Source: Enterobacteria phage vB_EcoM_IME340. From it: DNA of 64,000 nucleotides. Made by a program: the position numbers and the translations under genes. The stretch lies in sequence record MH051916; one strand, given 5' to 3'. Positions within the stretch are counted from its first letter, which is position 1, and the number at the start of each line of letters is the position of its first letter. The notes under the pieces were generated by a model. That model was not told the DNA's origin, did not search any database, and saw only the letters and a program-made list of their open reading frames with translations. Below, piece after piece: positions 4,676 through 60,179 of the stretch.

Positions 4676-4682
4676 GGAAAAT

Positions 4683-5806: not shown

Positions 5807-5813
5807 GGAAAAT

Positions 5814-5972: not shown

Positions 5973-6105
5973 GAAAATCTTGGGCTACTCGGTAGCCCTT
6001 GCTATTTTATTGATAGCGCTATATTATGGAGTAATGTTCGGATTAATTCAAGTCGTGCTTTTCATTTCTGATGTTATTATGGCACTACATTCACTAGTAT
6101 GGTAA
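5965..6105 (+). CDS. small membrane protein (52.1 position)
   Basis: 46-aa hydrophobic ORF overlapping ac stop, ends 5 nt before gene 52. Confidence 0.35.
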   Translation: MIKKILGYSVALAILLIALYYGVMFGLIQVVLFISDVIMALHSLVW

Positions 6106-6109
6106 ATTT

Positions 6110-7438
6110 ATGCAACTGAATAATCGTGATTTAAAAAGTATCATTGATAATGAAGCATTGGCTTATGCTATGTACACGGTTGAAAATCGTGCTATTCCAA
6201 ATATGATTGATGGATTTAAGCCAGTTCAACGATTTGTTATCGCTCGAGCTCTTGATTTGGCACGGGGAAATAAAGATAAGTTTCACAAACTCGCTTCTAT
6301 TGCAGGTGGTGTAGCTGACCTTGGATATCATCATGGCGAAAACTCCGCACAAGATGCGGGGGCTTTGATGGCTAACACTTGGAATAATAACTTTCCTTTG
6401 TTAGATGGTCAAGGAAACTTTGGTTCTCGTACTGTTCAAAAAGCAGCGGCAAGTCGTTATATTTTTGCTCGTGTAAGTAAAAATTTCTATAACGTATATA
6501 AAGATACTGAATATGCTCCGGTACATCAAGATAAAGAACACATTCCGCCTGCTTTCTATTTGCCTATTATTCCTACTGTTCTTCTTAATGGTGTTTCCGG
6601 TATTGCAACTGGTTATGCAACTTACATTCTTCCTCATAGTGTTTCTTCTGTCAAGAAAGCTGTACTACAAGCTCTTCAAGGAAAGAAAGTAACTAAACCG
6701 AAGGTAGAATTCCCAGAATTTCGTGGTGAAGTCGTTGAAATTGATGGCCAATATGAAATTCGTGGAACGTACAAGTTTACTTCACGAACCCAAATGCATA
6801 TCACTGAGATTCCATATAAGTATGATCGTGAAACTTATGTGAGTAAAATCTTAGACCCGCTTGAAGATAAAGGCTTCATTACATGGGATGATGCTTGTGG
6901 TGAGCATGGTTTTGGCTTTAAAGTTAAATTCCGCAAAGAATACTCTTTGAGCGATAACGAAGAAGAACGCCATGCAAAAATCATGAAAGACTTCGGGTTG
7001 ATTGAGCGTCGTTCTCAGAATATTACAGTCATTAACGAGAAAGGAAAGCTGCAAGTTTATGACAACGTAGTTGATTTAATCAAAGACTTCGTTGAAGTTC
7101 GTAAAGATTATGTCCAAAAACGAATTGATAACAAAATCAAAGAAACTGAATCAGCATTTCGTTTAGCCTTTGCCAAGGCGCATTTCATTAAGAAAGTAAT
7201 TTCAGGTGAAATTGTTGTGCAGGGTAAAACTCGTAAAGAACTGACCGAAGAACTTTCTAAAATTGATATGTATTCTTCTTATGTTGATAAACTAGTCGGA
7301 ATGAATATTTTTCATATGACTTCTGATGAAGCAAAGAAACTTGCTGAAGAAGCTAAAGCTAAGAAAGAAGAAAACGAATATTGGAAAACTACTGATGTAG
7401 TTACCGAATACACTAAAGATTTAGAGGAAATCAAATGA
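6110..7438 (+). CDS. 52: DNA topoisomerase II medium subunit
   Basis: 442 aa as in T4 gp52; GyrA-like N-terminus (PVQRFV motif). Confidence 0.9.
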   Translation: MQLNNRDLKSIIDNEALAYAMYTVENRAIPNMIDGFKPVQRFVIARALDLARGNKDKFHKLASIAGGVADLGYHHGENSAQDAGALMANTWNNNFPLLDGQGNFGSRTVQKAAASRYIFARVSKNFYNVYKDTEYAPVHQDKEHIPPAFYLPIIPTVLLNGVSGIATGYATYILPHSVSSVKKAVLQALQGKKVTKPKVEFPEFRGEVVEIDGQYEIRGTYKFTSRTQMHITEIPYKYDRETYVSKILDPLEDKGFITWDDACGEHGFGFKVKFRKEYSLSDNEEERHAKIMKDFGLIERRSQNITVINEKGKLQVYDNVVDLIKDFVEVRKDYVQKRIDNKIKETESAFRLAFAKAHFIKKVISGEIVVQGKTRKELTEELSKIDMYSSYVDKLVGMNIFHMTSDEAKKLAEEAKAKKEENEYWKTTDVVTEYTKDLEEIK

Positions 7439-11096: not shown

Positions 11097-11126
11097 AGAC
11101 CCTCCTTTTAAGGATATTTATTCAAA

Positions 11127-11906
11127 TTATACTCTTGGACCATATATTGCTCCAACGTTTTGCCATGTCGGTGTAGACCCTATGACGGCATAACCAGCAG
11201 CACCACCGTTATATTCTGTACCGTTCCCATGAATATTACATCTACCTCCTGCTGAGCCAACTTCACCGCCATTCCCGCCTGTATATACCCAAAGAGACCC
11301 CTCACCGACAGATCCTGCACCCGGAGCGGAAATGGTGCCAGCGGTTGCACCAGCACCCATATGAGAGGAAGACCCGCCAGCACCGAATGGGCGACCACCA
11401 CCACCACCAAATGATAGTCTACCGTAGTTACCGCCGCCGCCGCCACCGCCGCCGCCTGCAATAGCTCCACCATTATTAATTCTTAGTCTCCCACCAATAT
11501 CGTTTTGAATACAATGACCTCCAGCTGAGCCAGGACTATTGCTACCGCCATTACCGCCACGTCCATACATCGTTACGCCGTGTATATTCAACTGAACATA
11601 TTCATTCGGTGTATCTCCGTACATGAAGAATAAAGGAACATCTTTAGAATATGATACTAAATCTCCAGTGATATTAAACACTATAGGTGTACTACCTGCC
11701 TCAAAACATCTATCTCGGAACCATTGACCATTGAAGTTATGGTCTGCTCCAAGTGTATGAATAATTTCTCTTGAGCGACCTGCAAATTGACTCATCCAGC
11801 AAGGAACACCCAATCTTAATTGACCAGCTGCTTGACTCATCCAGCGCTGACCCGTTTCATTTACGGCTGAACTTCCAATCCAGCCAGGAACTCCAACTAC
11901 TGCCAT
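11127..11906 (-). CDS. 38: gp38 receptor-binding adhesin, T2-type, with glycine-rich motifs
   Basis: 259 aa with poly-Gly tracts ([23 protein letters not shown]) typical of T2/K3/S16-type gp38 adhesins; not the 183-aa T4 chaperone type. Confidence 0.85.
11398..11457 (-). repeat. GGN codon triplet repeat encoding poly-Gly tract in gp38
   Basis: + strand reads (CCA)4...(CCG/CCA)9, near-perfect trinucleotide repeat. Confidence 0.7.
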
Positions 11907-11942
11907 AATTTATACTCCAAAGGGGGCATTTCCCCCTTGTTG

Positions 11943-14900
11943 TTAGAATTTAAAATATTTACTAATTTTGCGAGCAATTTTAGTAAAGAGAGGCGTTTTC
12001 AATTCTTTAATTTCTTCACTCATTTCCTGAATAGCCTTAATTAAAAGAGCATTCACTGTAGAGTTAGAAATTGTTAAAATCTCTTCTGGGTTATCAAGAG
12101 ATCCGACATTAGAAGTGCTAACAGCTTCCGGTAAAATTTCTTGTAAATCCTGCGCGATAATACCAATCTCATGTGCGATGACTTCTCGGTCAGAAAGAGA
12201 CTTAACTTTATCGTAGGTTTTAACTTTTAGTTTATTTACCTTATCTACCGCATTTTCTTCGTAGTCTTCAACGTTAATTTTCAGACGACGGTCGGAACGA
12301 ATATAAACATCGTTACAGTAAACCGACGCACTAGATGTGAAATCACCATTTGCAGCCCATGAATACCAGCCGCCTTTGTTCATATGCATCATTACGGTAG
12401 CTTGACCACCGCCAGCATGAACACCCATTGCCGCAAGATGATCAACACCCCAATGAGTTGCTTTCCAAATTGAATATGCTCGGGTATGTGAATCCTGACA
12501 ATCTAAGAGAATACCAGCAGGACGGTTGCGCCAGTCATCCCAAGCACCACCAAAAACATCACCACGGATAAGAGCGTATTCACTATTATAAGGAACTTGC
12601 TCTCCCGCTTTAATCATTGCACCCTGGAAGTGATGACTAAATGAACCCCCATGATTATTTCGTATATGTAAAATACCCTCATCTGTAGCCCAGATAACAG
12701 CCTTTTCTGCATCGCTATCATCTCTAAACCAGATATGGCGAGCACCAGTTGAGTTTTTGATGGTTATTCCGCTAGGTCCATGCACGGTCAAAGAACCAGC
12801 AACATCAAACATCAAACTGTTATCTGTCCTGCGTTCAGCATAGAAGTGATAACCTTTTGAATCGCCGACTTCCAATACTGCCGCGCGACCAACTTCTGAA
12901 TTTCCCCAATTGTTGATAGAGAATCGTTCAGAGCTATTATTCATCTGATTTAGGTATAATGTACCATCAGTGAATGTTTCGCCAAAGAAACGAGTTTTAA
13001 TTGCACCTGTCGCTAAAGTACGTTCAGTGGAAAAATGGGCGCCTTGACTATCTTCTAACTGGATGATGTTATCACGAGCGTTATTGCTATCACCCCAATG
13101 GTTAAATTTAAAATAATCTCGTGATCCTAAACGTCCGGCGTCAAAAGTCATCAAGCCTTTCATGTTAATATCACCGCCGACCAGAACGTTATCCGGGAAG
13201 TTAACTGTACCATCAGCATTAAATCTTGATGTATGGCCCTGTGTTCCATCTTCTTTGATATGGTGTATCACGAATGTACCTGAATTAATTTCAGTACCTA
13301 AAGACCAAACTGCTTTACCTTGAAGGTATTTTTGCTTAACAATCGGATAATATTTGTTTACAGCATCATCATCGATTTCCTGGAAAATAGGAGCCGCTTG
13401 AACATATTGAATATCATAACCACCAGCGCCAGCGCCATGACCAACAAATTTAATATAGCCGTTCGCAGCGAACGTATTGTAACTTGATTGTAAATCTGGA
13501 ATAGTAACTTTACCGGTATCTAAAGCCATACTAAACGGGCGAAGTGGACCGATATCGCCATGTTTACCTTCACCATAAGCAGTTGGAATAATATGAAGAC
13601 TGCCTTCTGAACGTCTAAAAATAGCTCCATAATCTGCGTTCCAAATGCGAAGACCATTTACAGCATTTGTCGCGATTTCACCGGCTGCGCTGATTGTACC
13701 GTCAAATGTAGCATTTTTTACTACTGTAAAGTTTTCATTAACAATCTGGGTGCCATTTATAACCGATTCGATTTTACCCGCAGTTGTTCGTTGAATATAA
13801 TGCATCCATCCAATATCATCAGAAATTTCCATGACATTTTTACGGGTGCCTTCACTTGGATTAGTAAAAGTATTTCCCCAAACAGCTATATACATGTTAT
13901 CAACGGAGCTTTGACCCATGGTATAGCCTTTAAACATTAAAGTTGAATTATTATTTCTACCATCAATATTAACCGAACCACCAATAACGTCAATATTGCC
14001 TGGAGTAACTAACAAACCGCCATGAGTATTAATGTTTGTGGTACCCTTACCGCGGAAATAGTGATGATAGTTACCGCCTTGATAATATCCTAAAAGAGTT
14101 TGACCGTCACCATACGCGTTATTATCATGGTAAGTAACAACAGTGGCTAATGCATAGTTTTCTGTCGGTGGCGTTGTCATAAGAATCCCATCCGGAGAAT
14201 AACCCATAACCATTTTTCTAAGGCTTTGTGTTTCCGCAGGACCGTAAATGAAAGTTCTTGTTCCGTTGTTTACTGCATGAAAATATCCGTCCTGATGCCA
14301 TTTAAATCCGGTATCATTATCGCCAATAGCAATAGAACCTTTACCTAAGGCTGAATATGTCATAGGACTTGATTCCATACCTACTGCAATTGAATGGCCT
14401 GCTTGAAGCCCACCGGAATAAGAAAATGACAACATGTAATCAGTAGGGGTTGAACCAGAATACCAACTGATGCCGTTATTTTCACAAATTTCATGGAGCA
14501 TTGCGGCCGCTGGGTCGGTACGTACAATGCGCAAATAGTTTTTATCTGTGTCAGAATTATTATTTGCTAATGAAGATATATCATAATCGCCCGTCTTCTT
14601 CCCATCTGTAATAACTTTATCGGTCAGAATTTGTGGAGACGAAATAGATTTCCATGCTGATACTTCAGGTGAAGTAAATAGGCCACTGCCTGAAAATGCA
14701 TAGGTGCTTTCATCACCAGCGGCGTAGTCTTGAACCCTGATATTAAGTACTTGTGTAGTTAATCCATCATTAGCCGGGGCATAAATTATTCCGCGTTCGC
14801 GGTTATTGCCATCGAAAAAACGAACATGCGCTGTACCTGAACTTTTTGTAATAAGTTCTCCGCCCTCAGTCATAATCTGCCCGGCGGCAATAATATCGCG

Positions 14901-15185
14901 AGTTACTCGAGCAATACCAGTTAAATTAAAATTACCTGTCTGAGTGAAAGCGCCATTTAAAGTATAATCACCAGTTTGATTATAGTTTCCTATATGAATA
15001 ACATTCCCGTCAATGCTACCGCCCTTAGCAAAACCAAGATCAATGATATTTCCTTGGTCGTCTTTAGTAAAAAGTACGCGGTCTTTTAAGTTTATAGCCA
15101 ATTCACCTTCGGCTAATACTGAAGCGGCAGGACGTGCTCCTGCAGTTTTGCTTCTTTTAAATTGTATTTGTTTTAAAGTAGCCAT
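11943..15185 (-). CDS. 37: long tail fibre distal subunit gp37 with C-terminal intramolecular-chaperone (S74-like) domain
   Basis: 1080 aa; conserved T-even gp37 N-terminus (MATLKQIQFKRSK); C-terminal ~117 aa begins SDRRLKINVEDYE, resembling self-cleaving chaperone domains. Confidence 0.88.
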   Translation of the reverse strand: MATLKQIQFKRSKTAGARPAASVLAEGELAINLKDRVLFTKDDQGNIIDLGFAKGGSIDGNVIHIGNYNQTGDYTLNGAFTQTGNFNLTGIARVTRDIIAAGQIMTEGGELITKSSGTAHVRFFDGNNRERGIIYAPANDGLTTQVLNIRVQDYAAGDESTYAFSGSGLFTSPEVSAWKSISSPQILTDKVITDGKKTGDYDISSLANNNSDTDKNYLRIVRTDPAAAMLHEICENNGISWYSGSTPTDYMLSFSYSGGLQAGHSIAVGMESSPMTYSALGKGSIAIGDNDTGFKWHQDGYFHAVNNGTRTFIYGPAETQSLRKMVMGYSPDGILMTTPPTENYALATVVTYHDNNAYGDGQTLLGYYQGGNYHHYFRGKGTTNINTHGGLLVTPGNIDVIGGSVNIDGRNNNSTLMFKGYTMGQSSVDNMYIAVWGNTFTNPSEGTRKNVMEISDDIGWMHYIQRTTAGKIESVINGTQIVNENFTVVKNATFDGTISAAGEIATNAVNGLRIWNADYGAIFRRSEGSLHIIPTAYGEGKHGDIGPLRPFSMALDTGKVTIPDLQSSYNTFAANGYIKFVGHGAGAGGYDIQYVQAAPIFQEIDDDAVNKYYPIVKQKYLQGKAVWSLGTEINSGTFVIHHIKEDGTQGHTSRFNADGTVNFPDNVLVGGDINMKGLMTFDAGRLGSRDYFKFNHWGDSNNARDNIIQLEDSQGAHFSTERTLATGAIKTRFFGETFTDGTLYLNQMNNSSERFSINNWGNSEVGRAAVLEVGDSKGYHFYAERRTDNSLMFDVAGSLTVHGPSGITIKNSTGARHIWFRDDSDAEKAVIWATDEGILHIRNNHGGSFSHHFQGAMIKAGEQVPYNSEYALIRGDVFGGAWDDWRNRPAGILLDCQDSHTRAYSIWKATHWGVDHLAAMGVHAGGGQATVMMHMNKGGWYSWAANGDFTSSASVYCNDVYIRSDRRLKINVEDYEENAVDKVNKLKVKTYDKVKSLSDREVIAHEIGIIAQDLQEILPEAVSTSNVGSLDNPEEILTISNSTVNALLIKAIQEMSEEIKELKTPLFTKIARKISKYFKF

Positions 15186-23175: not shown

Positions 23176-23183
23176 TTGCTTAT

Positions 23184-23191
23184 TATAAATA
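23184..23191 (+). promoter_or_regulatory. late promoter TATAAATA upstream of gene 32
   Basis: exact TATAAATA. Confidence 0.5.
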
Positions 23192-23208
23192 AATTATAAT
23201 TATCTCAC

Positions 23209-23274
23209 TGACCAGCTATGAGGTCATACATCGTCATAGCACCAACTGTTAATTAAATTAAAAAGGAAATAAAA
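23209..23274 (+). promoter_or_regulatory. gene 32 autogenous translational operator (pseudoknot plus unstructured AU-rich leader)
   Basis: TGACC-AGCTATGA-GGTCA...TCATAGC pseudoknot pairing, then UUAAAUUAAAAAGGAAAUAAAA before ATG. Confidence 0.75.
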
Positions 23275-26095: not shown

Positions 26096-26115
26096 AATAA
26101 CGCGTGGCGGAAAAT

Positions 26116-26463
26116 ATGAACTTTAATTATTACCCTATTCTATTAGAAAAAGACGCGAAACAACCAAAATGGCAGGGTCCTCAGTTTATTAAAGGCGTCT
26201 ATCAATTAGTAGTTCCTAAAGACAAGATTTATAGCAGTTGTTTCACTGAATCCGCTTGCAGTATTTTCGGTAATAGTTCTCCGTATTGGAATTTTGATAT
26301 AAAGCTGGATAGAAATATCGATATTTGGTTGAAAGCTATGGATATTGGCAATATCACGTTTGATGAGAATAATTATCATATTATTGGTCGTTTTTCCAAA
26401 CGTGGTAAAGAATTATATTTCACGCCTGAAATTGAAAGAAAATTTGACGCTAAACCGTATTGA
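26116..26463 (+). CDS. hypothetical protein encoded by insert between frd and td
   Basis: 115 aa from ATG (ORF track 26104 start is GTG); no recognisable motif. Confidence 0.5.
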   Translation: MNFNYYPILLEKDAKQPKWQGPQFIKGVYQLVVPKDKIYSSCFTESACSIFGNSSPYWNFDIKLDRNIDIWLKAMDIGNITFDENNYHIIGRFSKRGKELYFTPEIERKFDAKPY

Positions 26464-28952: not shown

Positions 28953-31207
28953 TTAATGTTATCAAAAGTAGTGGTGTTTCTCAAAGCTTTGACCCGCAAA
29001 AAATTATTAAAGTTTTATCTTGGGCAGCTGAAGGAACATCTGTAGATCCTTATGAATTATATGAAAATATTAAATCATATCTCCGTGATGGAATGACCAC
29101 TGATGACATTCAAACCATTGTAATTAAGGCTGCTGCGAATTCTATTTCAGTTGAAGAGCCTGATTATCAATATGTAGCTGCACGCTGTTTAATGTTTGCT
29201 CTTCGTAAGCATGTTTACGGTCAGTATGAACCACGTTCATTTATTGACCATATTTCTTACTGTGTAAATGAAGGTAAATACGACCCTGAATTGTTGTCAA
29301 AATATTCTGCAGAAGAAATTACATTTTTAGAATCAAAAATTAAGCACGAGCGGGATATGGAATTTACTTATTCCGGGGCGATGCAATTAAAAGAAAAATA
29401 TCTCGTTAAAGACAAAACCACCGGTCAAATTTATGAAACTCCACAGTTTGCATTTATGACTATTGGAATGGCATTGCATCAAGATGAACCTGTTGACAGA
29501 TTAAAACATGTTATTCGTTTTTATGAAGCAGTATCTACTCGACAGATTTCATTGCCAACTCCTATTATGGCTGGATGTCGTACTCCAACTCGGCAATTTA
29601 GTTCATGCGTTGTTATTGAGGCAGGTGATTCGCTGAAGTCTATCAATAAGGCTTCTGCTTCAATTGTTGAGTATATTTCTAAACGAGCTGGAATCGGCAT
29701 TAACGTTGGTATGATTCGTGCCGAAGGTTCTAAGATTGGCACAGGTGAAGTGCGTCATACTGGTGTTATTCCTTTTTGGAAACATTTTCAGACTGCTGTT
29801 AAATCATGCTCACAGGGTGGAATTCGTGGCGGCGCTGCTACTGCTTATTATCCTATTTGGCATTTGGAAGTTGAAAATCTTCTCGTTTTGAAAAATAACA
29901 AAGGCGTAGAAGAAAACCGTATCCGTCATATGGATTATGGTGTCCAGCTGAATGATTTGATGATGGAACGTTTTGGAAAGAACGATTACATTACTTTGTT
30001 TAGTCCACATGAAATGGGTGGCGAACTTTATTATTCTTATTTTAAAGACCAAGACCGTTTCCGTGAATTATACGAAGCAGCAGAAAAAGATCCTAATATT
30101 CGTAAAAAGCGTATTAAAGCCCGTGAACTATTTGAATTGCTCATGACTGAACGCTCAGGAACAGCAAGGATTTATGTACAGTTCATTGATAATACGAATA
30201 ACTATACTCCGTTTATTCGTGAAAAGGCACCTATTCGTCAGAGTAACTTGTGTTGTGAAATTGCTATTCCAACAAATGATGTAAATAGTCCTGATGCTGA
30301 AATTGGATTGTGTACTCTCTCTGCATTCGTACTAGATAATTTTGACTGGCAAGACCAAGATAAAATTAATGAATTGGCAGAAGTTCAAGTTCGTGCTCTT
30401 GATAATCTTTTGGATTACCAAGGATATCCAGTTCCTGAAGCAGAAAAAGCTAAAAAGCGTCGTAACCTCGGTGTAGGTGTTACCAACTATGCAGCTTGGC
30501 TGGCAAGTAACTTTGCTTCTTATGAAGATGCTAACGATTTAACACATGAACTATTTGAGAGATTACAGTATGGACTCATTAAAGCATCCATTAAGCTCGC
30601 CAAAGAAAAAGGACCTTGCGAATATTATTCAGACACTCGTTGGTCTCGAGGCGAATTACCTATCGACTGGTACAATAAAAAGATTGACCAAATCGCAGCT
30701 CCAAAATACGTTTGTGACTGGTCGTCGCTGCGGGAAGACCTTAAGCTCTTTGGCATCCGTAATAGCACATTATCAGCACTTATGCCATGTGAGTCATCTT
30801 CCCAAGTTTCTAACAGTACAAACGGCATCGAGCCTCCACGTGGACCGGTAAGTGTTAAAGAATCAAAAGAGGGCTCCTTTAATCAAGTCGTGCCCAATAT
30901 TGAGCATAACATAGACCTCTATGATTATACATGGAAATTAGCTAAGAAAGGTAATAAACCTTATCTTACTCAGGTAGCTATTATGCTGAAATGGGTATGT
31001 CAATCAGCTTCAGCGAATACATATTATGACCCGCAGATTTTTCCAAAAGGAAAGGTTCCAATGTCTGTAATGATTGATGACCTTTTGTATTTTTGGTATT
31101 TTGGCGGAAAAAATTTCTATTATCATAATACCCGTGATGGTTCTGGTACTGATGATTATGAAATAGAAACTCCAAAAGCTGAAGATTGTTCATCCTGTAA
31201 ATTATGA
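28943..31207 (+). CDS. nrdA: ribonucleotide reductase large subunit
   Basis: 754 aa as in T4 NrdA; ATP-cone N-terminus, active-site region NLCCEIA. Confidence 0.95.
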   Translation: MQLINVIKSSGVSQSFDPQKIIKVLSWAAEGTSVDPYELYENIKSYLRDGMTTDDIQTIVIKAAANSISVEEPDYQYVAARCLMFALRKHVYGQYEPRSFIDHISYCVNEGKYDPELLSKYSAEEITFLESKIKHERDMEFTYSGAMQLKEKYLVKDKTTGQIYETPQFAFMTIGMALHQDEPVDRLKHVIRFYEAVSTRQISLPTPIMAGCRTPTRQFSSCVVIEAGDSLKSINKASASIVEYISKRAGIGINVGMIRAEGSKIGTGEVRHTGVIPFWKHFQTAVKSCSQGGIRGGAATAYYPIWHLEVENLLVLKNNKGVEENRIRHMDYGVQLNDLMMERFGKNDYITLFSPHEMGGELYYSYFKDQDRFRELYEAAEKDPNIRKKRIKARELFELLMTERSGTARIYVQFIDNTNNYTPFIREKAPIRQSNLCCEIAIPTNDVNSPDAEIGLCTLSAFVLDNFDWQDQDKINELAEVQVRALDNLLDYQGYPVPEAEKAKKRRNLGVGVTNYAAWLASNFASYEDANDLTHELFERLQYGLIKASIKLAKEKGPCEYYSDTRWSRGELPIDWYNKKIDQIAAPKYVCDWSSLREDLKLFGIRNSTLSALMPCESSSQVSNSTNGIEPPRGPVSVKESKEGSFNQVVPNIEHNIDLYDYTWKLAKKGNKPYLTQVAIMLKWVCQSASANTYYDPQIFPKGKVPMSVMIDDLLYFWYFGGKNFYYHNTRDGSGTDDYEIETPKAEDCSSCKL

Positions 31208-31258
31208 TATAATTTGACTCACGGACGAGTCACTATCTATTAACTAAGCGGAAAATTT

Positions 31259-32437
31259 ATGAGCACAGTTTTTAATACAAATCCAGTTGATGTTTTAAAA
31301 GAACCTATGTTCTTCGGATCAGGTCTTGGTATTGCGCGTTATGATATTCAACGTCATAAAGTTTTTGAAGATTTAACCGAAAAGCAGTTGTCATTTTTCT
31401 GGCGTCCTGAAGAAGTAAACTTAATGATGGATGCTGCACAATTTAACAAGCTTCCTCAGTATCAGCAAGATATTTTTACTAATAACCTGAAGTATCAATC
31501 ACTTCTAGATAGCATTCAGGGTCGTGCACCGTCTGCTGTACTTATGTCATTAATTTCAGACCCAAGTCTTGATACATGGGTTGCTACATGGACTTTTAGC
31601 GAAACTATTCACAGCCGTTCATATACTCATATCATGCGAAATCTTTATACTGACCCATCAAAGGTATTTGATGAGATTGTATTAGATGAAGATATTATGA
31701 AACGCGCTGAGTCCATTGGTCGCTATTACGATGATGTTCTTAAGAAGACCCGTGAATGGGAAAATGCTAAAGAATTTGTAGAACTAGCTAAAGAATCTCC
31801 TGATGCTGATTTTCGTTTAAATCGAGCTATTAAACAAGAAGCCGAAGCTAAACGAGCACTAATGAAATCTCTTTATCTTTGCCTTCATGTAATCAATGCA
31901 TTGGAAGCTATTCGTTTTTACGTATCTTTCGCCTGTACCTTTAACTTCCATAAGAACATGGAAATCATGGAAGGTAATGCTAAGATTATGAAGTTCATTG
32001 CACGTGATGAACAACTTCACCTTAAAGGCACCCAATATATTATTCGTCAACTTCAACTTGGTACTGATGGTGATGAATGGGTTAAAATTGCTCAAGAATG
32101 TGAACAAGAAGCAGTTGATATTTTCATGGAAGTTAACCGCCAAGAAAAAGACTGGGCAGTTCATTTATTTAAAGATGGCGATGTTCCTGGATTAAATACA
32201 AATAGCATGTGGAGCTTTATTGATTACTTAACTGTATCTCGTATGAAACAGTGCGGTCTTCCATGCCCAATTACCGATGCTCCGGTTAAACATCCATATC
32301 CTTGGATTCGTGAATACCTTAATTCTGATAATGTTCAATCCGCGCCGCAAGAAGTAGAACTGTCATCTTACCTTGTTGCACAGATTGATAATGATGTTGA
32401 TGATAAAGTTATGATGAGTTTTAAAAAATATTTTTAA
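31259..32437 (+). CDS. nrdB: ribonucleotide reductase small subunit (uninterrupted, no intron)
   Basis: 392-aa continuous ORF with di-iron/tyrosyl-radical motifs. Confidence 0.93.
   Translation: MSTVFNTNPVDVLKEPMFFGSGLGIARYDIQRHKVFEDLTEKQLSFFWRPEEVNLMMDAAQFNKLPQYQQDIFTNNLKYQSLLDSIQGRAPSAVLMSLISDPSLDTWVATWTFSETIHSRSYTHIMRNLYTDPSKVFDEIVLDEDIMKRAESIGRYYDDVLKKTREWENAKEFVELAKESPDADFRLNRAIKQEAEAKRALMKSLYLCLHVINALEAIRFYVSFACTFNFHKNMEIMEGNAKIMKFIARDEQLHLKGTQYIIRQLQLGTDGDEWVKIAQECEQEAVDIFMEVNRQEKDWAVHLFKDGDVPGLNTNSMWSFIDYLTVSRMKQCGLPCPITDAPVKHPYPWIREYLNSDNVQSAPQEVELSSYLVAQIDNDVDDKVMMSFKKYF

Positions 32438-35483: not shown

Positions 35484-35487
<4 letters not shown>
35257..35487 (+). CDS. hypothetical protein
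   Basis: 76-aa coupled ORF. Confidence 0.4.
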
Positions 35488-36687
<1,200 letters not shown>

Positions 36688-37418: not shown

Positions 37419-37946
37419 ATGAGCGAATGGTTTGAAGAAGGTAAGGTTTATCGCTTTAAAGCTGGATATAAAGATATTTTTAATGAAACTTGCGGGGCTA
37501 ATAAACGAATTGCCCAGTTTATTGGGGAAAATTCATTTAAAGTAAAAATAGATCCTGCGAAAAATGTTATTAGCATTAAACGCGAAATTGATGATTGTTG
37601 GTATAAAGCTGTTGATGTAATGGGTGAATCCTATAAAGTTAGCCCGTTATTTTCAATTGCTTATATGTTAGAATATTCTTTTTTCGAAGAAGTTCAAAAA
37701 GATGATTCTACAAGTAAATTTGAAATTAAAACTGATAAAGAAATTAAGTGGAAAGTAGTAGGTATTACTGGTTGTATGTTCTATATCTATGCTCAAACTG
37801 ATACGAAGGAAGAAGCTAAAAAGAAAGCTCTAGAATATCTTGAAGAGTATGAAGAAGGTCCGGTAATGATTACCCGAGATGCTGAATTAGTTTCTGTCAA
37901 ATTAGTTAAAAACGTTGAAAGTAAGGAGCTAGGATCAACATGCTAA
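37419..37946 (+). CDS. hypothetical protein (cd.x region)
   Basis: 175-aa ORF with early promoter and SD upstream. Confidence 0.45.
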   Translation: MSEWFEEGKVYRFKAGYKDIFNETCGANKRIAQFIGENSFKVKIDPAKNVISIKREIDDCWYKAVDVMGESYKVSPLFSIAYMLEYSFFEEVQKDDSTSKFEIKTDKEIKWKVVGITGCMFYIYAQTDTKEEAKKKALEYLEEYEEGPVMITRDAELVSVKLVKNVESKELGSTC

Positions 37947-43615: not shown

Positions 43616-43884
43616 TGTTTGTTGTTCATACTATTTATGAAAATGAAGGTAATACTACACGTGATTACGGTCACGTAAATCAATTTTTTAGATGCAATCC
43701 AGAATTCCGTGCTCAAAAAGACGAACGAATTTTTAAAAAATGTGTAGAACAAGGTTTCATTTACGTCAAGCACTGGATGCAAGGAAATAAAGTTAGAACT
43801 ACATATCATAAGTCTTTGCCTGAGCTTAATGATGAATTGATTTATAATAGAAATGTAAATCAAACTCTGAAGGATGAACAATGA
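43615..43884 (+). CDS. hypothetical protein (30.1 position)
   Basis: 89-aa ORF coupled at both ends (ATGA overlaps). Confidence 0.4.
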   Translation: MFVVHTIYENEGNTTRDYGHVNQFFRCNPEFRAQKDERIFKKCVEQGFIYVKHWMQGNKVRTTYHKSLPELNDELIYNRNVNQTLKDEQ

Positions 43885-45341
43885 TTCTTAAAATTCTGAA
43901 TGAAATAGCATCTATTGGATCAACTAAGCAGAAGCAAGCAATTCTTGAAAAGAATAAAGATAATGAATTGCTTAAACGAGTATATCGTCTGACTTATTCT
44001 CGTGGGTTACAGTATTATATCAAGAAATGGCCTAAGCCTGGTATTGCTACCCAGAGTTTTGGAATGCTGACTATTACCGATATGCTTGACTTCATTGAAT
44101 TCACGTTAGCTACTCGGAAATTAACTGGCAATGCAGCAATTGAGGAATTAACTGGATATATCACCGATGGTAAAAAGGATGATGTTGAAGTTTTGCGTCG
44201 AGTTATGATGCGAGACCTTGAATGCGGTGCTTCAGTATCTATTGCAAACAAAGTTTGGCCAGGTTTAATTCCTGAACAACCTCAAATGCTTGCAAGTTCT
44301 TATGATGAAAAAGGCATTAGTAAGAATATCAAGTTTCCAGCCTTTGCGCAGTTAAAAGCAGATGGAGCTCGGTGTTTTGCTGAAGTCCGAGGCGATGAAT
44401 TAGATGATGTTCGTCTTTTATCGCGAGCTGGTAATGAATATCTAGGATTAGATCTTCTTAAGGAAGAGTTAATCAAAATGACTGCTGAAGCCCGCCAGAT
44501 TCATCCAGAAGGTGTGTTAATTGATGGCGAATTGGTATACCATGAGCAAGTTGAAAAGGAACCAGAAGGCCTAGATTTTCTTTTTGATGCTCCTGAAATC
44601 AGTAAAGCTAAAGAAGTCGCCGAAGTAGCTGAATCACGCACTGCTTCTAATGGAATCGCCAATAAATCTTTAAAGGGAACTATTTCAGAAAAAGAAGCCA
44701 AATGCATGAAGTTTCAGGTCTGGGATTATGTTCCGTTAGTAGAAATATACGGTCTTCCGGCGTTTCGTTTAAAATATGATGTACGTTTTTCTAAACTAGA
44801 ACAAATGACATCAGGATATGATAAAGTAATTTTAATTGAAAACCAAGTAGTAAATAACCTAGATGAAGCTAAGGTAATTTATAAAAAATATATTGACCAA
44901 GGCCTTGAAGGTATTATTCTCAAAAATACCGATGGATTGTGGGAAAATGCTCGTTCAAAAAATCTCTATAAATTTAAAGAAGTAATTGATGTTGATTTAA
45001 AAATTGTAGGAATTTATCCTCACCGTAAAGACCCTACTAAAGCGGGTGGATTTATTCTTGAATCAGAGTGTGGAAAAATTAAAGTAAATGCAGGTTCAGG
45101 CTTAAAAGATAAAGCTGGCGTAAAATCACATGAACTTGACCGTACTCGCATTATGGAAAACCAAAATTATTATATTGGAAAAATTCTAGAGTGCGAATGC
45201 AATGGTTGGTTAAAATCTGATGGCCGCACTGATTACGTTAAATTATTTCTTCCGATTGCGATTCGTTTACGTGAAGATAAAACTAAAGCTAATACATTTG
45301 AGGATGTATTTGGTGATTTTCATGAGGTAACTGGTCTATGA
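43881..45341 (+). CDS. 30: ATP-dependent DNA ligase
   Basis: 486 aa; adenylation motif KADGAR; matches T4 DNA ligase. Confidence 0.95.
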   Translation: MILKILNEIASIGSTKQKQAILEKNKDNELLKRVYRLTYSRGLQYYIKKWPKPGIATQSFGMLTITDMLDFIEFTLATRKLTGNAAIEELTGYITDGKKDDVEVLRRVMMRDLECGASVSIANKVWPGLIPEQPQMLASSYDEKGISKNIKFPAFAQLKADGARCFAEVRGDELDDVRLLSRAGNEYLGLDLLKEELIKMTAEARQIHPEGVLIDGELVYHEQVEKEPEGLDFLFDAPEISKAKEVAEVAESRTASNGIANKSLKGTISEKEAKCMKFQVWDYVPLVEIYGLPAFRLKYDVRFSKLEQMTSGYDKVILIENQVVNNLDEAKVIYKKYIDQGLEGIILKNTDGLWENARSKNLYKFKEVIDVDLKIVGIYPHRKDPTKAGGFILESECGKIKVNAGSGLKDKAGVKSHELDRTRIMENQNYYIGKILECECNGWLKSDGRTDYVKLFLPIAIRLREDKTKANTFEDVFGDFHEVTGL

Positions 45342-45526
45342 AAGCTTACTTAGAAACAATTGTCGTGGCTCAAAAAGAAGGTGGAGATGTTTCTACTTCT
45401 GTATCACAAATCGTTCTCGAATTTGTAGATGCATATGCTTATAATAAATTTACAGAAACATTTGATGCCTACGAAAAAGGTCCAAAGTTTGAAATATATC
45501 GTACTCTCTTACCACTAGATTATTAA
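45338..45526 (+). CDS. hypothetical protein
   Basis: 62-aa coupled ORF. Confidence 0.35.
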   Translation: MKAYLETIVVAQKEGGDVSTSVSQIVLEFVDAYAYNKFTETFDAYEKGPKFEIYRTLLPLDY

Positions 45527-45547
45527 AGGCCTTCGGGCCTTTAATTT

Positions 45548-45555
45548 TATAAATA
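45548..45555 (+). promoter_or_regulatory. late promoter TATAAATA upstream of alt genes
   Basis: exact TATAAATA ~25 nt before alt start, just after a UUCG hairpin (45525-45543). Confidence 0.55.
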
Positions 45556-45578
45556 GAATAAACACTAGAGAGGATATG

Positions 45579-47672
45579 ATGGAACTTATTACAGAATTAT
45601 TTGACGAAGATACTACTCTTCCGATTACAAACTTAAATCCAAAGAAGAAAATACCGCAAATTTTTTCAGTTCATGTTGATGACGCAATTGAACAACCAGG
45701 CTTTCGTTTATGTACCTATACATCTGGAGGTGATACTAATCGCGATTTAAAGATGGGCGATAAAATGATGCATATTGTTCCTTTTACATTAACTGCTAAA
45801 GGTTCAATTGCTAAATTAAAAGGTCTCGGTCCAAGCCCAATTAATTACATCAATTCAGTTTTTACTGTTGCAATGCAGACGATGCGTCAGTATAAAATTG
45901 ATGCCTGTATGCTTCGTATTCTTAAGTCTAAAACTGCTGGTCAAGCTCGACAAATTCAAGTTATTGCTGATAGACTTATCCGTAGTCGTTCAGGTGGCAG
46001 ATACGTCCTTCTTAAGGAACTCTGGGATTATGATAAAAAGTACGCATATATTCTTATACATCGCAAAAATGTATCACTAGAAGACATTCCAGGAGTTCCT
46101 GAAATTAGTACCGAGCTCTTTACTAAGGTTGAATCGAAAGTCGGCGATGTTTATATCAATAAAGATACTGGAGCTCAAGTAACTAAAAATGAGGCAATTG
46201 CAGCATCTATTGCACAAGAAAATGATAAACGCTCTGACCAAGCTGTTATCGTTAAAGTTAAAATTTCCCGTAGAGCAATTGCACAAAGTCAGTCATTAGA
46301 ATCTTCTAGATTTGAAAGCGAATTATTCCAGAAATATGAATCTACCGCAGCTAATTTCAATAAACCTGCTACAGCTCCTTTAATTCCCGAAGCAGAAGAA
46401 ATGAAGCTTGGAATTAATTCATTAGCTTCTAAAACTAAGGCAGCAAAAATTATTGCCGAAGGAACCGCAGATGAACTTCACTATGACTATAAATTCTTTT
46501 CAAAAAGTGAGGTTAATGAAGTTTCTGAAAAAATTAAAGATGTAATTCTTAATGCGATTAAAAATGAACCAACTACTTCAATAAAATGTTTAGAGAAATA
46601 CGCAGCAGCTGTTAATCAATTATTTGAAGAATATAAAGATAATTGGCTTGATAAACATAATAAAACTCGTAAAGGGCAGCCAGATGAAGTCTGGGAAGAA
46701 ATAACTAAAAATTCCTGGAACGCAGCAAAAACTAAATTCCTCAAACGAATGATTTATAGCTTTTCTGGAATTGGTGCAGGTCCAATGATTGATATTACCA
46801 TTGCACGTGATGGTTCTAAATATACTCCATCACAAAAGCGCGGCATTAGAGAGTATTGTGGATCAGGATATACTGACATCAATAATCTTCTTTTAGGCCG
46901 CTACAATCCAGAACGATATGATGTAATGAGTGAAAAAGAAATTGAATCTGCGATAAATAATTTAGATTCAGCCTTTGAAAATGGTGACCGTATACCAGAA
47001 GGCATTACAGTTTATCGTGCTCAAAGCATGACTGCTCCTATATACGAAGCATTAGTTAAAAATAAAGTATTCTATTTCAGAAATTTTGTATCTACTTCTT
47101 TAACTCCTATCATTTTTGGACGTTTTGGAATTACACATGCTGGTATTGGTCTTTTAGAACCAGAAGCTCGTAATGAATTGACAGTTGATAAAAATGAAGA
47201 AGGAATAACTATTAATCCAAACGAAATAAGAGCGTATAAAGAAAATCCTGAATACGTTAAAGTTCAAATAGGATGGGCAATTGATGGAGCTCATAAAGTT
47301 AATGTTGTATATCCAGGAAGTCTCGGAATAGCAACAGAAGCTGAAGTTATTCTACCACGCGGATTGATGGTCAAAGTTAATAAAATAACTGATGCTTCTA
47401 ATAATGATGGAACAACATCTAATAATACAAAACTCATTCAAGCTGAAGTTATGACTACGGAAGAACTCACCGAATCAGTCATTTATGACGGTGACCGTCT
47501 AATGGAAACCGGCGAAGTAGTTGCAATGACAGGTGATATTGAAATAGAAGACAGAGTTGACTTTGTATCATTTGTTTCATCAAATGTTAAACAGAAAGCA
47601 GAATCATCTCTCGGAATTATTGCGTCTTGCATAGATATTACAAACATGCCTTACAAGTTCGTTCAAGGATAA
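45579..47672 (+). CDS. Alt-family ADP-ribosyltransferase, paralogue A
   Basis: 697 aa from MELITELFD; R-S-E ART motif (YRAQ, FVSTSL, EAEVILPRG). Confidence 0.8.
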   Translation: MELITELFDEDTTLPITNLNPKKKIPQIFSVHVDDAIEQPGFRLCTYTSGGDTNRDLKMGDKMMHIVPFTLTAKGSIAKLKGLGPSPINYINSVFTVAMQTMRQYKIDACMLRILKSKTAGQARQIQVIADRLIRSRSGGRYVLLKELWDYDKKYAYILIHRKNVSLEDIPGVPEISTELFTKVESKVGDVYINKDTGAQVTKNEAIAASIAQENDKRSDQAVIVKVKISRRAIAQSQSLESSRFESELFQKYESTAANFNKPATAPLIPEAEEMKLGINSLASKTKAAKIIAEGTADELHYDYKFFSKSEVNEVSEKIKDVILNAIKNEPTTSIKCLEKYAAAVNQLFEEYKDNWLDKHNKTRKGQPDEVWEEITKNSWNAAKTKFLKRMIYSFSGIGAGPMIDITIARDGSKYTPSQKRGIREYCGSGYTDINNLLLGRYNPERYDVMSEKEIESAINNLDSAFENGDRIPEGITVYRAQSMTAPIYEALVKNKVFYFRNFVSTSLTPIIFGRFGITHAGIGLLEPEARNELTVDKNEEGITINPNEIRAYKENPEYVKVQIGWAIDGAHKVNVVYPGSLGIATEAEVILPRGLMVKVNKITDASNNDGTTSNNTKLIQAEVMTTEELTESVIYDGDRLMETGEVVAMTGDIEIEDRVDFVSFVSSNVKQKAESSLGIIASCIDITNMPYKFVQG

Positions 47673-47675
47673 ATC

Positions 47676-49733
47676 ATGGAACTTATTACAGAATTATTTG
47701 ACGGCGCTTCGGCGCCGATTGTTAACTTAAATCCTAAGCATAAAATACCTCAAATTTTTGCTATTCAAGCCGGTGAAGAAAGCGTGCTTCCTGGATTTAG
47801 ATTTTGTACATACACCTCTGGCGGTGATACAAATAAAAACGTTAAGCCAGGCGATAAAATGATGCATATCGTAATGATAGGTGTTAATGAGAAACTATCA
47901 TTAGTTAAACTTAAAAACTTGGGTGGAAATCCAATTGGTGTCATTAATGCGGTTTTTGATACTGCTCTTCAGACAATGAAACAATACAAAATTGACGCAT
48001 GCTTATTCCGCGTACTAAAGAGTAAAACAAATGGTGCAGCTCGTCAAATGCAAGTTATTGCCGACCGTTTAGTACGTACTAAAGGAGCAGGTCGATATGT
48101 TCTTTTAAAGGAAATCTGGGATTACGATAAAAAGTACGCATATATTATGGTTTACCGTAAAAATGCTAATTTAGAAGACACTCCAGGTGTACCTCCTATT
48201 TCAACTGAGTTATTCACAAAAGTTGAATCAAAGGTTGGTGATGTTTATGTAGATGTTAAAACCGGTAATGCTGTTCCTAAAGCTGTTGCTGTTGCTGCTT
48301 CTATTGCTTTAGAAAACGATAAGCGCACGGATCAAGCTGTTATTCAGAAAACTAAAATTAGTCGTCGGTTAGCAGCACAAGCTCAATATTCTACTGTCGA
48401 TGCTTCACTTCAGGGTGATAGCTTCGCTGCTAAGAAATATCAAGAGTTTGAATCTAAAGTTCCGGTATATAAAGCAGAAGGACCAATGAACTCTGGCGTT
48501 ATTCAGGTTGGTTCAAACTTCAGCAAAGGAGCTATCGGTGGTATGAGAAGTGCTTCCCGTTTTAAATCTAGTGATTATGAATTAGAAAGCTTCCGAAATC
48601 ATATTGCATTGGCTCATGCGCGTTTACGTGATCCATCTATCAAGTTACAGAGCGATATATCATATCAAGGTTCTCAAGAATATTTAAAGAATAAAGAATT
48701 TTTTGATTATAAAACTGATAAAATTTTAAGCGATCTTGCTGACATTAATATTTCTAATAGCTTTGATGTTATTAAGAAAATTATCAATGATTTAGTTAAA
48801 GGTTCTAAAGCTACGCCAGATGAAAAGACAGCTATTATTCAATTTGTCATGAATGGCATTTATAAATTGATTAATGAATCTGCTGCCCAGGCATATGAAT
48901 ACGCAAGCATCGAAGTAACTCCAAAAGAACTGACCCAGGCTGAGTCTGATGTGATTGAAGATTATTGTGCAGATTCATATGTTGAAATGAACTCGTTCCT
49001 TTTGGGTAAACCAGATTCTACCCGTGAAGAATACATGGAACGAGCTATTAAACACATCGAGACGCTGGATTCTGCCTTTGCCAAAGGATCAGTTCTTCCT
49101 CCAGGAACTACACTTTACCGTGGACAAGAAGTTACCTTTAAAACTTTGCGTCATAACATTGAAAATAAAATGTTCTATTTCAAGAACTTCGTATCCACAT
49201 CGCTTAAACCAAATATCTTCGGTGAGCATGGTAAAAACTATATGGCTCTAGATGATTCCGGCGCAGTATTTTCTGGTGAAGGAGAAGGTTCCGTTGATAC
49301 AGAAGATTTGATGCATATGGGTAGTCATTCTACATATGCTAATGAAGATGCTGAAACTAGCGTGGGTATGGTAATTAAAGGAGCTGAGCGAATCAAAGTT
49401 ATCGTTCCAGGTCATTTATCAGGATTTCCATCAGAAGCTGAAGTTATTCTACCGCGTGGAATTTTACTGAAGATTAATAAAGTAAGTACGTACTTTATGA
49501 AAGAAACTGCTTATAACAAGTATCTAATCGAAGGTACAATCGTTCCTCCTTCTGAACAATTAGAAGAATCAGTATATGATGGCGACCATCTAATGGAAAC
49601 TGGTGAAGTTCGTCCAATGGCTGGATTTAATCAATTCCTTGTAGAAGAATCAAAAGAAGAGGAAAATGAAGTTTCTCAAATCTTAGCTTCTTTGGTTAAC
49701 ATCAACGGAATGTCTAAAAAGTTCAAAATGTAG
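47676..49733 (+). CDS. alt: Alt-family ADP-ribosyltransferase, paralogue B
   Basis: 685 aa; same N-terminus and R-S-E motif (YRGQ, FVSTSL, EAEVILPRG); closer to T4 Alt length (682). Confidence 0.8.
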   Translation: MELITELFDGASAPIVNLNPKHKIPQIFAIQAGEESVLPGFRFCTYTSGGDTNKNVKPGDKMMHIVMIGVNEKLSLVKLKNLGGNPIGVINAVFDTALQTMKQYKIDACLFRVLKSKTNGAARQMQVIADRLVRTKGAGRYVLLKEIWDYDKKYAYIMVYRKNANLEDTPGVPPISTELFTKVESKVGDVYVDVKTGNAVPKAVAVAASIALENDKRTDQAVIQKTKISRRLAAQAQYSTVDASLQGDSFAAKKYQEFESKVPVYKAEGPMNSGVIQVGSNFSKGAIGGMRSASRFKSSDYELESFRNHIALAHARLRDPSIKLQSDISYQGSQEYLKNKEFFDYKTDKILSDLADINISNSFDVIKKIINDLVKGSKATPDEKTAIIQFVMNGIYKLINESAAQAYEYASIEVTPKELTQAESDVIEDYCADSYVEMNSFLLGKPDSTREEYMERAIKHIETLDSAFAKGSVLPPGTTLYRGQEVTFKTLRHNIENKMFYFKNFVSTSLKPNIFGEHGKNYMALDDSGAVFSGEGEGSVDTEDLMHMGSHSTYANEDAETSVGMVIKGAERIKVIVPGHLSGFPSEAEVILPRGILLKINKVSTYFMKETAYNKYLIEGTIVPPSEQLEESVYDGDHLMETGEVRPMAGFNQFLVEESKEEENEVSQILASLVNINGMSKKFKM

Positions 49734-49762
49734 TTTACAAGTTCCTTATGTTGTGTTATAGT
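49733..49762 (+). promoter_or_regulatory. early promoter and conserved leader (copy of 34056 element)
   Basis: GTTTAC ... TATAGT; ~50/55 nt identical to the alc leader. Confidence 0.5.
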
Positions 49763-49793: not shown

Positions 49794-50084
49794 ATGAAAT
49801 CTTCTTTGCGCTTTTTAGGTCAAGAACTTGTAGTTGAAGGCGTTATTCCTGCTGATAATGCTTTTAATGAAGCAGTTTACGACGAATTTATCAAAATTTT
49901 TGGAACAGATAAAAAGTTCGGAATTTTTCCTTCTGAAAATTTTTCAAAGCCAGAACAGACTGAAAGCATTTTCCAAGGTGTAGTAACAGGTAAATTTGAG
50001 TCAGAAGCTCCGGTAAAAATTGAAGTTTATATTGAAGACAGTTTAGTTGCTTCAGTTGCTGCTTTTATTTCATTCCGTAAATAA
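49794..50084 (+). CDS. hypothetical protein
   Basis: 96-aa ORF with GAGGAA SD. Confidence 0.45.
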   Translation: MKSSLRFLGQELVVEGVIPADNAFNEAVYDEFIKIFGTDKKFGIFPSENFSKPEQTESIFQGVVTGKFESEAPVKIEVYIEDSLVASVAAFISFRK

Positions 50085-50090
50085 AAATAT

Positions 50091-50108
50091 GGGGACCTTT
50101 CGGTCCCC
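50091..50108. terminator. bidirectional terminator hairpin between convergent genes
   Basis: GGGGACC-TTTC-GGTCCCC flanked by A/T runs. Confidence 0.6.
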
Positions 50109-50112
50109 ATTG

Positions 50113-58638: not shown

Positions 58639-60150
58639 TTATAAATTAACTGTTTTCATTACGTAATTAAATTTTTCATCTGCGTAGCGCTGAATACGAT
58701 CAATGCCGTGTTTTAAAAGATAGTTCAAATGAACGTATTTCTTTTTCGTATTAGCAGATTTTGGCTTAACACCGCAATCATCTATGAGGTCCCAGACCGT
58801 TGCGATTGTTTTAGAACCATGCTTACGTAATACGCGACCTATTGTTTGCAATACAATAATTTTAGATTTAACACCGTGCGCTAAAACAACGTGATGCAGA
58901 TTTTTAACTGAAATACCAGTAGAAAATACACCATAACTAGCTACTATAATTATTCCTTTACCGTTTTCAGCTAAGGTTTTCATTACATTGCGTGTTTCAG
59001 TATCAACTTCCCCTGATACGTAATAAACTTTATCGTATTCATTTTTAATTAAATCGAAAATAGCTTTACCATGTGATACATGCTTAAACATGACAAAAGC
59101 GTTTTCATCTTTTTGCGCAAGCTTAATAGCTAATTTAGCGATCCATTTATTTCTTTTACTGAGCCCAGTAATAATTTTTATTTCTTCTTGGTAAGTTTTT
59201 CCCTTTAATTTAGTAGTGAACTCATCGGGATAGCGAAGAAAAATACTATTAATTTTTAGCTCAGTTACTTGTCCATCTTCCATTAATTTAGAAGTCGTTA
59301 CTGGCTTAAATATTTCACCAAACATTCCAACATACTGCATGATATTAGCTTTGCCATCACGTAATGAACCCGATAGACCAAATTTGAACATGCAGTTATT
59401 TAAACCTGATATGATAGATGAAATACTTTTTCCTGTGGCAAGATGGCATTCATCATTCATCATCATTCCAAACTGTGAGAACCATTCTTTTGGTTGTTTT
59501 ACTACAGTTTGCCATGTACCAACAATTACCGGTGCATCATTTTTATATTTATCATCTTTTGATGCTCCGCCGCCAATTTTCTTTATCATTGCATGACTGA
59601 ATAAACGATAGTCAACAAAGTCATCAGCCATCTGAGTTGTCAGAGCAGTTGTTGGAACAATGATAAGAATTTTACCTTCATAATTTTCCAAATAATAACG
59701 TGCAAGCAAAGCTTGAATTAAGGATTTACCTGCGGATGTTGGAAGATTAAGAATTCTACGACGATTAACTAATCCTTCGAACACTGCATCTTTTTGATAC
59801 CAGTGTGGTTCAATTCTTTTATTTCCTGAATAGATTTCTAACTTAGAAAGCCATTCATCAAAATCTTTTCTTGATAATTCTTCTTTTTCGTTAATTTGCG
59901 GGTCAATCCAAGCTTTATAGCCAAAGTTATCGCAGAACTTTTTAATTTGCCCGACTAAGCCGAATGGAAGAAGACGATTATAATCTAAAAGACGGATTCG
60001 TCCATCCCAGTGACCATATTTGTATTTCGGATTAAAACGATACCCATCAGCTTCAAAGCTAAAGAAATCACGGAGTTCATGAAATGTACTTTCTTCACAA
60101 TCAATTCTCACGTGACTAAAATCATAAAAATGTACTTTAATGTCAGTCAT
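58639..60150 (-). CDS. uvsW: SF2 DNA/RNA helicase UvsW
   Basis: 503 aa; Walker A PTSAGKS, DECH box. Confidence 0.9.
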   Translation of the reverse strand: MTDIKVHFYDFSHVRIDCEESTFHELRDFFSFEADGYRFNPKYKYGHWDGRIRLLDYNRLLPFGLVGQIKKFCDNFGYKAWIDPQINEKEELSRKDFDEWLSKLEIYSGNKRIEPHWYQKDAVFEGLVNRRRILNLPTSAGKSLIQALLARYYLENYEGKILIIVPTTALTTQMADDFVDYRLFSHAMIKKIGGGASKDDKYKNDAPVIVGTWQTVVKQPKEWFSQFGMMMNDECHLATGKSISSIISGLNNCMFKFGLSGSLRDGKANIMQYVGMFGEIFKPVTTSKLMEDGQVTELKINSIFLRYPDEFTTKLKGKTYQEEIKIITGLSKRNKWIAKLAIKLAQKDENAFVMFKHVSHGKAIFDLIKNEYDKVYYVSGEVDTETRNVMKTLAENGKGIIIVASYGVFSTGISVKNLHHVVLAHGVKSKIIVLQTIGRVLRKHGSKTIATVWDLIDDCGVKPKSANTKKKYVHLNYLLKHGIDRIQRYADEKFNYVMKTVNL

Positions 60151-60179
60151 GTCTAAATACCATGTAATAAATATATCTA

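Follow-up and report, generated by a model that had tools for sequence, protein, structure and literature searches.

Enterobacteria phage vB_EcoM_IME340 (sequence record MH051916) carries two full-length alt genes in tandem, here called copy 1 and copy 2. In the 64,000 nucleotides (nt) analysed, referred to throughout as the window, both genes are intact and show purifying selection; they are separated by 3 nt and are situated downstream of one late promoter. The best explanation, to which a probability of about 0.8 is given, is that the pair represents the standard two-gene alt array of T-even phages, in which paralogous genes for mono-ADP-ribosyltransferases of the arginine type (R-S-ExE) stand behind one late promoter and their products are both packaged, processed and injected, with different or overlapping targets. 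The model for such behaviour is T4 Alt, a protein of the prohead core that is present at ~40 copies per head and is injected with the DNA (PMC9026906).

According to this explanation, both copies would be made late on one transcript, running from the promoter at 45548 through alt.-3 to a hairpin at 50089-50110. Both proteins would be built into the prohead core via a shared N-terminal module, and the gp21 prohead protease would trim each of them at ITE-6 and at an L-x-E motif before SV(I)YDGD, leaving products of ~70 and ~69 kDa. Following injection with the DNA, both would modify host proteins by ADP-ribosylation of arginines right as infection begins. For copy 1 the targets would be those of T4 Alt, RNA polymerase alpha among others; those of copy 2 would differ from this set or overlap with it, as determined by its divergent helical centre and ADP-ribosyltransferase (ART) cassette.

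Two divergent paralogues in one probable late unit

The coordinates and lengths (697 and 685 amino acids, aa) that an earlier reading of the sequence, the original prediction, gave for the two open reading frames (ORFs) are exact. Copy 1 begins with two adjacent in-frame ATG codons (45576-45581), such that a start at 45576 gives 698 aa and a start at 45579 gives 697; the T4 annotation and the reported numbering of ITE-6 cleavage agree with the second ATG. The two proteins are 41% identical end to end (BLASTP, expect value (E) 6e-158). They agree in all of the first nine residues and in 68% of residues 1-235, so that the shared N-terminal module proposed earlier is real, but its description as 'near-identical' was overstated. 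The predicted divergence of the central and C-terminal regions is borne out, with the copies being barely alignable in the centre (~aa 240-410) and ~30-40% identical in the ART part. The effector parts (aa 236-630) of copies within one genome share 29-38% identity.

Both proteins belong to known families. The PHROG 802 family, 'Alt-like RNA polymerase ADP-ribosyltransferase', matches residues 1-696 of copy 1 (E 3.7e-272) and residues 1-685 of copy 2 (E 1.2e-254). The Pfam family PF03496 (ADPrib_exo_Tox) is matched by copy 1 at 129.2 bits (E 1.6e-37) and by copy 2 at 73.0 bits (E 2.6e-20), against a curated cut-off of 23.4 bits. The catalytic residues are R480, S505-T506-S507 and E587-A-E589 in copy 1 and R482, S507-T508-S509 and E587-A-E589 in copy 2, an ExE pair being a mark of arginine-specific enzymes. 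The Arg, Ser-Thr-Ser and Glu-x-Glu motifs are invariant in both copies, in T4 Alt and throughout a 16-sequence alignment, and this alignment, together with PF03496, confirms the R-S-E ART signature that had been predicted for both. For the N-terminal module (residues 1-240), no match was found in the local Pfam library, nor any convincing structural relative. A further Pfam entry, PF26846.1, absent from the local library, is precomputed beside PF03496 on the copy 1 and copy 2 proteins in a large protein database, and may be a family newly built for the N-terminal part of Alt.

An AlphaFold model of copy 2 (predicted local distance difference test 74.3, predicted template modelling score 0.67) comprises four parts: an alpha/beta N-terminal domain (to ~235), an all-helical centre (~240-470), the ART domain (~475-625) and disordered ends. 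The ART fold on which membership of the R-S-E ARTs depends was found, and the top structural match is Vis, an arginine-specific ART. Searched by sequence against the PDB, copy 2 gave no match at E up to 0.01. The toxins C3, Vis, Certhrax, iota-CDTa and VIP2 share only 14-25% sequence identity with the Alt proteins, which differ from R-S-E toxins in having an extra N-terminal alpha/beta module of ~235 aa and a helical centre of ~230 aa. Moreover, unlike these toxins, T4 Alt is delivered from the phage head (PMC5512222).

Expression of the pair appears to depend on a single late promoter. The sole exact TATAAATA on the + strand between 44000 and 51000 is that at 45548, the whole window holding five on the + strand and four on the - strand. 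T4 and T6 have TATAAATA at the equivalent place, with a start context that is also alike, and by the T4 late-promoter consensus the site would be an active promoter. As had been predicted, a late promoter is present before the first copy only, there being no exact TATAAATA directly in front of copy 2. A separate late promoter for copy 2 was considered and rejected, since only matches with one mismatch occur inside the genes; an exact internal TATAAATA of T6, absent from the window, was treated as chance. In a scan of the sequence, no terminator was found between the copies. With one conserved late promoter, a 3-nt gap, a putative ribosome-binding site (AAGGA) for copy 2 inside copy 1 and no intervening terminator, a single transcript for both alt genes would be the simplest reading, in agreement with the co-transcription suggested originally.

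The second copy in T4 and its relatives

T4 Alt (NP_049811, 682 aa) is 70% identical to copy 1 and 41% identical to copy 2, in both cases end to end (BLASTP). Copy 1 is the ortholog of T4 alt. The two genes occupy one slot, between alt.1 and alt.-3/gene 54, and have an identical late promoter and start context. Over the first 235 aa and the last ~100 aa their proteins hardly differ, and the R-S-ExE, ITE-6 and LTE motifs are common to both. Past aa 235, however, the proteins are 57% identical, and an internal cassette (~aa 244-595), comprising the helical centre and most of the ART domain, is ~50-57% identical between identical flanks. T4 therefore carries a different alt allele.

The original prediction gave T4 a single Alt of 682 aa. 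The length is correct, but the picture of a single gene is incomplete, since a check of the T4 reference between alt and gene 54 found a decayed copy 2, annotated as alt.-1 and alt.-2. The product of alt.-1 (NP_049810, 61 aa), which starts 3 nt after alt, is 93% identical to copy 2 residues 1-56, and that of alt.-2 (NP_049809, 67 aa) is 98% identical to residues 62-116; PHROGs 23015 and 15247 match the residues of copy 2 equivalent to alt.-1/alt.-2. DNA alignment shows that the loss of one base from an A-run, near window position 47835, has split the T4 frame, and that T4 has also lost 1,699 nt between 9-bp direct repeats, CTAAA(G/A)AGT. This deletion took the centre, the ART domain and the C-terminus of copy 2, all of which are intact in the window. 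A note in the T4 RefSeq record attributes alt.-1/alt.-2 to an old duplication that involved the beginning of alt; given the intact gene of the window, the duplication was therefore full-length and T4 lost most of it later.

The intact arrangement is common. Matches of at least 95% identity to the divergent part of copy 2 (aa 235-685) occur in 400 phage records, including T6 and RB27, a set that contains some GenBank/RefSeq duplicates. Direct inspection of the T6, JE01, PP01 and T2 loci revealed two full-length genes in each, 3 nt apart. The T4 deletion was counted with an 80-nt query spanning the junction (at least 80% covered), because 90% of a 431-nt T4 query also matches intact copy 2, making it unsuited to this purpose. 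The junction was found in 91 of 482 matching records, including the Pu-Krd-SF and AV121 phages; sampled rows of the other ~390 match only beyond the junction, as expected with an intact copy 2. Full-length matches to the T4 remnant were obtained for T4 strains, RB55, RB59, ACG-C40 and vB_EcoM_112. Both genes are therefore present in approximately four fifths of sequenced relatives, and T4 belongs to the minority.

The original prediction implied that the duplication was unusual and named routine occurrence in close relatives as grounds for abandoning this view. The same two ORFs do occur in T2, T6, PP01, HY01, RB27 and ~400 records, and the implied rarity is therefore not supported. The second gene annotated 'Alt-like RNA polymerase ADP-ribosyltransferase' in T2, T6, PP01, HY01, RB27 and SHFML-11/6phi13 encodes a protein 95-99% identical to copy 2, and in T2, T6, PP01 and others the 3-nt spacing and the neighbours are as in the window, with no material difference. 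A paper of 2006 pointed out alt paralogs in T4, RB49 and 44RR (PMC1524935), and one of 2026 reported the pair in 6phi13/SHFML-11, at 43.3% identity, and suggested functional divergence (PMC13600099). The two-gene arrangement is thus already known as the ordinary, annotated state of T-even phages and has been published with the same inference. As a finding, a two-copy alt adds little to the annotation of hundreds of records, the T4 annotation and the genome papers already available.

A larger array is found outside the genus. Dhakavirus (Escherichia phage KIT01, positions 1147-7410; JS10-like) has three tandem alt genes (695, 681 and 707 aa) with 3-nt gaps, again between alt.1 and alt.-3. The effector of its copy a resembles that of copy 1 (49%) and the effector of copy c resembles that of copy 2 (54%); the KIT01 array differs from that of the window in its additional copy b, which has its own effector type. 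No exact TATAAATA was found in the ~250 nt scanned upstream of the KIT01 array.

Proposed packaging and chemistry of copy 2, and its retention

Cleavage of T4 Alt by gp21 takes place at ITE-6 and LTE-619 (PMC5694885). Motif matching alone identifies gp21-type sites at ITE-6 and LTE-632 in copy 1 and at ITE-6 and LEE-631 in copy 2, and in both copies the C-terminal L-x-E directly precedes a conserved SV(I)YDGDxLMETGE. The low-confidence segments of the copy 2 model (1-10 and 630-685) coincide with the predicted propeptides, and the predicted mature masses are 70.1 kDa for copy 1 and 69.2 kDa for copy 2. Taken together, the motifs and the low-confidence ends support, but do not prove, packaging and processing of copy 2. 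Alternatively, copy 2 may be an active ART that is neither packaged nor injected and acts late in the producing cell, in the manner of ModA and ModB; its late promoter would in any case place it in the late infected cell. The T4 ModA and ModB proteins are, however, small and have no Alt N-terminal module, whereas copy 2 keeps the whole 235-aa module of the packaged Alt (68% identity), along with ITE-6 and L-x-E sites that would be purposeless outside the prohead. This alternative is considered unlikely.

A second alternative proposes that the chemistry of copy 2 has changed, and not just its protein target, from arginine mono-ADP-ribosylation to modification of nucleic acids or to the use of NAD-capped RNA as in ModB. 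Precedents exist among ARTs: T4 ModB, a related R-S-E ART, is reported to RNAylate proteins (PMC10468400), and RNA-modifying ARTs such as CmdT are known (PMC11618068). Consistent with such a change, the 75-residue stretch from STS to ExE differs strongly between the copies. Against it, the EAEVILPRG strand that includes the ExE motif is identical in both, the arginine specificity of Vis, the best structural match, points the other way, and no sequence feature points specifically to nucleic-acid binding. A change of chemistry is therefore regarded as very unlikely.

A third alternative holds that copy 2 is a functionless duplicate decaying towards the pseudogene state of T4. The frameshift and deletion seen in T4 and 91 records are compatible with this, as is the finding that alt itself is non-essential in T4 (PMC9026906). 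Nevertheless, the window, T2, T6, PP01 and JE01 all have an unbroken frame of 685 codons, and the catalytic motifs are invariant. In pairwise Nei-Gojobori comparisons of the window, PP01, T6 and JE01, the ratio of nonsynonymous to synonymous substitution rates (dN/dS) lay between 0.03 and 0.05 for copy 1 and between 0.04 and 0.08 for copy 2, at dS values reaching 0.25; both copies are therefore under strong purifying selection. In addition, the effector counterpart in Dhakavirus (KIT01 copy c, 100% bootstrap) indicates that the effector part of copy 2 has been kept since before the two genera split. Decay was rejected on the dN/dS and the intact motifs, and is given even less credence than a change of chemistry. 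Copy 2 is very likely functional, because of the strong purifying selection and the counterparts across genera. An assembly or reading artefact can be dismissed, since 41% protein identity, with ~68% DNA identity even in the most similar part, makes collapsed or expanded repeats impossible and the arrangement recurs in hundreds of independently sequenced genomes.

Several points weigh against the preferred explanation of two packaged, processed and injected arginine-type ARTs. Copy 2 is dispensable, as T4 and 91 records are without an intact gene; NCBIfam has no model for either copy; and the literature searches brought up no proteomic or biochemical study of copy 2. The proposal of one transcript draws on sequence signals only, and that of different target specificities on divergence only. 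Different targets are nonetheless plausible, because the effectors within a genome show such low identity while each is under strong purifying selection.

Constant module, variable cassettes and the surrounding locus

Bootstrapped neighbour-joining trees, built separately for residues 1-235 and 236-630, disagree. Residues 1-235 cluster by lineage, with the Tequatrovirus-type sequences together and the Dhakavirus-type sequences together, each with 100% bootstrap support, whereas residues 236-630 cluster by copy type across genera. In the latter tree, copy 2 of the window and T6 joins KIT01 copy c and JS10, and copy 1 of the window and T6, together with T4 Alt, joins KIT01 copy a (100% bootstrap for both). 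The identity of the N-terminal module is 68% between the window copies and 67-87% among KIT01 a, b and c, falling to 42-47% between genera. The variable part of copy 1 falls into identity classes, with 315 records at at least 95%, 34 at 80-90% and the rest below 60%. The disagreeing trees and the identity classes therefore indicate that the effector cassettes are old and/or have been exchanged between phages. The N-terminal module is homogenised within each lineage, either through gene conversion among neighbouring copies or because it co-evolves with a prohead partner specific to the phage. At 46296-47490 of the window (copy 1 aa 240-637), the discrete classes and the identical T4 flanks have the look of allele or cassette exchange inside alt.

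These patterns raise the speculation that the alt locus is a small array whose one to three injected effectors can stand in for one another; a lineage-specific packaging module would be uniform per genome, and old ART cassettes (copy 1, copy 2 and the third Dhakavirus type) would be kept or exchanged across genera. In this tentative scheme, which is considered possible rather than probable, copy 2 would act on a host target other than that of T4 Alt, perhaps a protein involved in defence or stress. The biochemistry of Alt has been centred on T4, the phage without copy 2, and for this reason a copy 2 target would have been missed. MuF-ART fusions and polyvalent proteins share the logic of a constant, head-associated N-terminal module joined to a fast-varying, exchanged effector (PMC9503650, PMC5512222). 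They differ in having a MuF domain, and no MuF (Phage_Mu_F) head-morphogenesis domain was found N-terminal to the effector in the Alt copies.

The window is a Tequatrovirus (T4-like) segment, collinear with T4 positions 108.5-168.9 kb in reversed orientation, and its best match across the locus is vB_EcoM_NBG2 (97.8%). Gene 30, alt.1, copy 1, copy 2 and alt.-3 are followed by the convergent baseplate genes 54 and 48 (Table 1), alt.-3 being the final gene of the rightward unit. The order from ligase to gene 54, with 54 on the opposite strand, agrees with T4, T2, T6 and PP01. The hairpin at 45522-45545 is probably the terminator of the upstream gene 30/alt.1 unit, lying directly before the late promoter. 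Of the hairpin between alt.-3 and 54, only the copy on the - strand is followed by a clear T run. Shuffled sequences yield at least as many sigma-70-type sites as this region does.

Table 1. Features of the alt locus, with positions numbered from the first nucleotide of the window
Feature	Position	Strand	Remarks
DNA ligase gene 30	43881-45341
alt.1, 62 aa	45338-45526		Pfam PF24647 'Phage blade protein', E 1e-29
Stem-loop, 10-bp stem, UUCG loop, then U-rich stretch	45522-45545	+	-13.5 kcal/mol, z = -2.76 vs shuffles
Predicted late promoter TATAAATA, T4-type	45548-45555	+	Exact match, 28-31 nt upstream of copy 1 start
Copy 1 ribosome-binding site GAGAGG	45568-45573	+	2 nt to first ATG, 5 nt to second
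alt copy 1, 697 aa + stop	45579-47672	+	Ortholog of T4 alt
Copy 2 putative ribosome-binding site AAGGA	47665-47669	+	Within the last codons of copy 1, 6 nt before ATG
alt copy 2, 685 aa + stop	47676-49733	+	Intact form of the T4 alt.-1/alt.-2 gene
Left 9-bp repeat CTAAAGAGT	48015-48023	+	Left edge of the segment deleted in T4
Right 9-bp repeat CTAAAAAGT	49714-49722	+	Right edge of the 1,699-nt T4 deletion
Sigma-70/T4-early-like promoter match TTTACA-17 nt-TATAGT, with TG, before alt.-3	49734-49762	+	10/12 matches, top scan score; consensus match only
alt.-3, 96 aa, DUF5498	49794-50084	+	Pfam PF17602, E 1.4e-64; named alt.-3 in T4, PP01, T2
G+C-rich hairpin, 9-bp stem, between convergent alt.-3 and 54	50089-50110		Both strands score as terminator

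Elsewhere in the window, several smaller observations were made. The alt.1 counterpart in the T6 RefSeq record is labelled 'siderophore-interacting protein', which looks like an erroneous carried-over annotation. C-terminal extension mutants of T4 Alt.-3 escape the CmdTAC defence system (PMC11618068); alt.-3 of the window has the normal length of 96 aa. Compared with T4, the window is without the mobile elements segG, mobE (with nrdB.1), the nrdB intron (I-TevIII) and segE (23176-23212, 31203-31259, 31932-31935 and 60144-60164), and its td region aligns continuously with the intron-containing td of T4. Three ORFs have no T4 counterpart at their positions: 26104-26463 (119 aa) between frd and td, 35484-35786 (100 aa) just upstream of pseT, and 37419-37946 (175 aa) between the cd.2 and cd.3 positions. 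The region of the distal tail-fibre gene 37 and gene 38 (11121-14999) has no nucleotide match to T4, as is expected for adhesins of the T2/T6 type.

With regard to the biology of the group, T4 stands apart from the other classical T-even phages in having deleted what is predicted to be a second injected ART. Because of this deletion, conclusions on Alt targets drawn from T4 may not generalise, and the T4-derived 'Alt target set' may not describe T2, T6 or most natural Tequatroviruses. That the N-terminal module is constant while the ART cassettes vary suggests an arms race between host and phage in the first seconds of infection.

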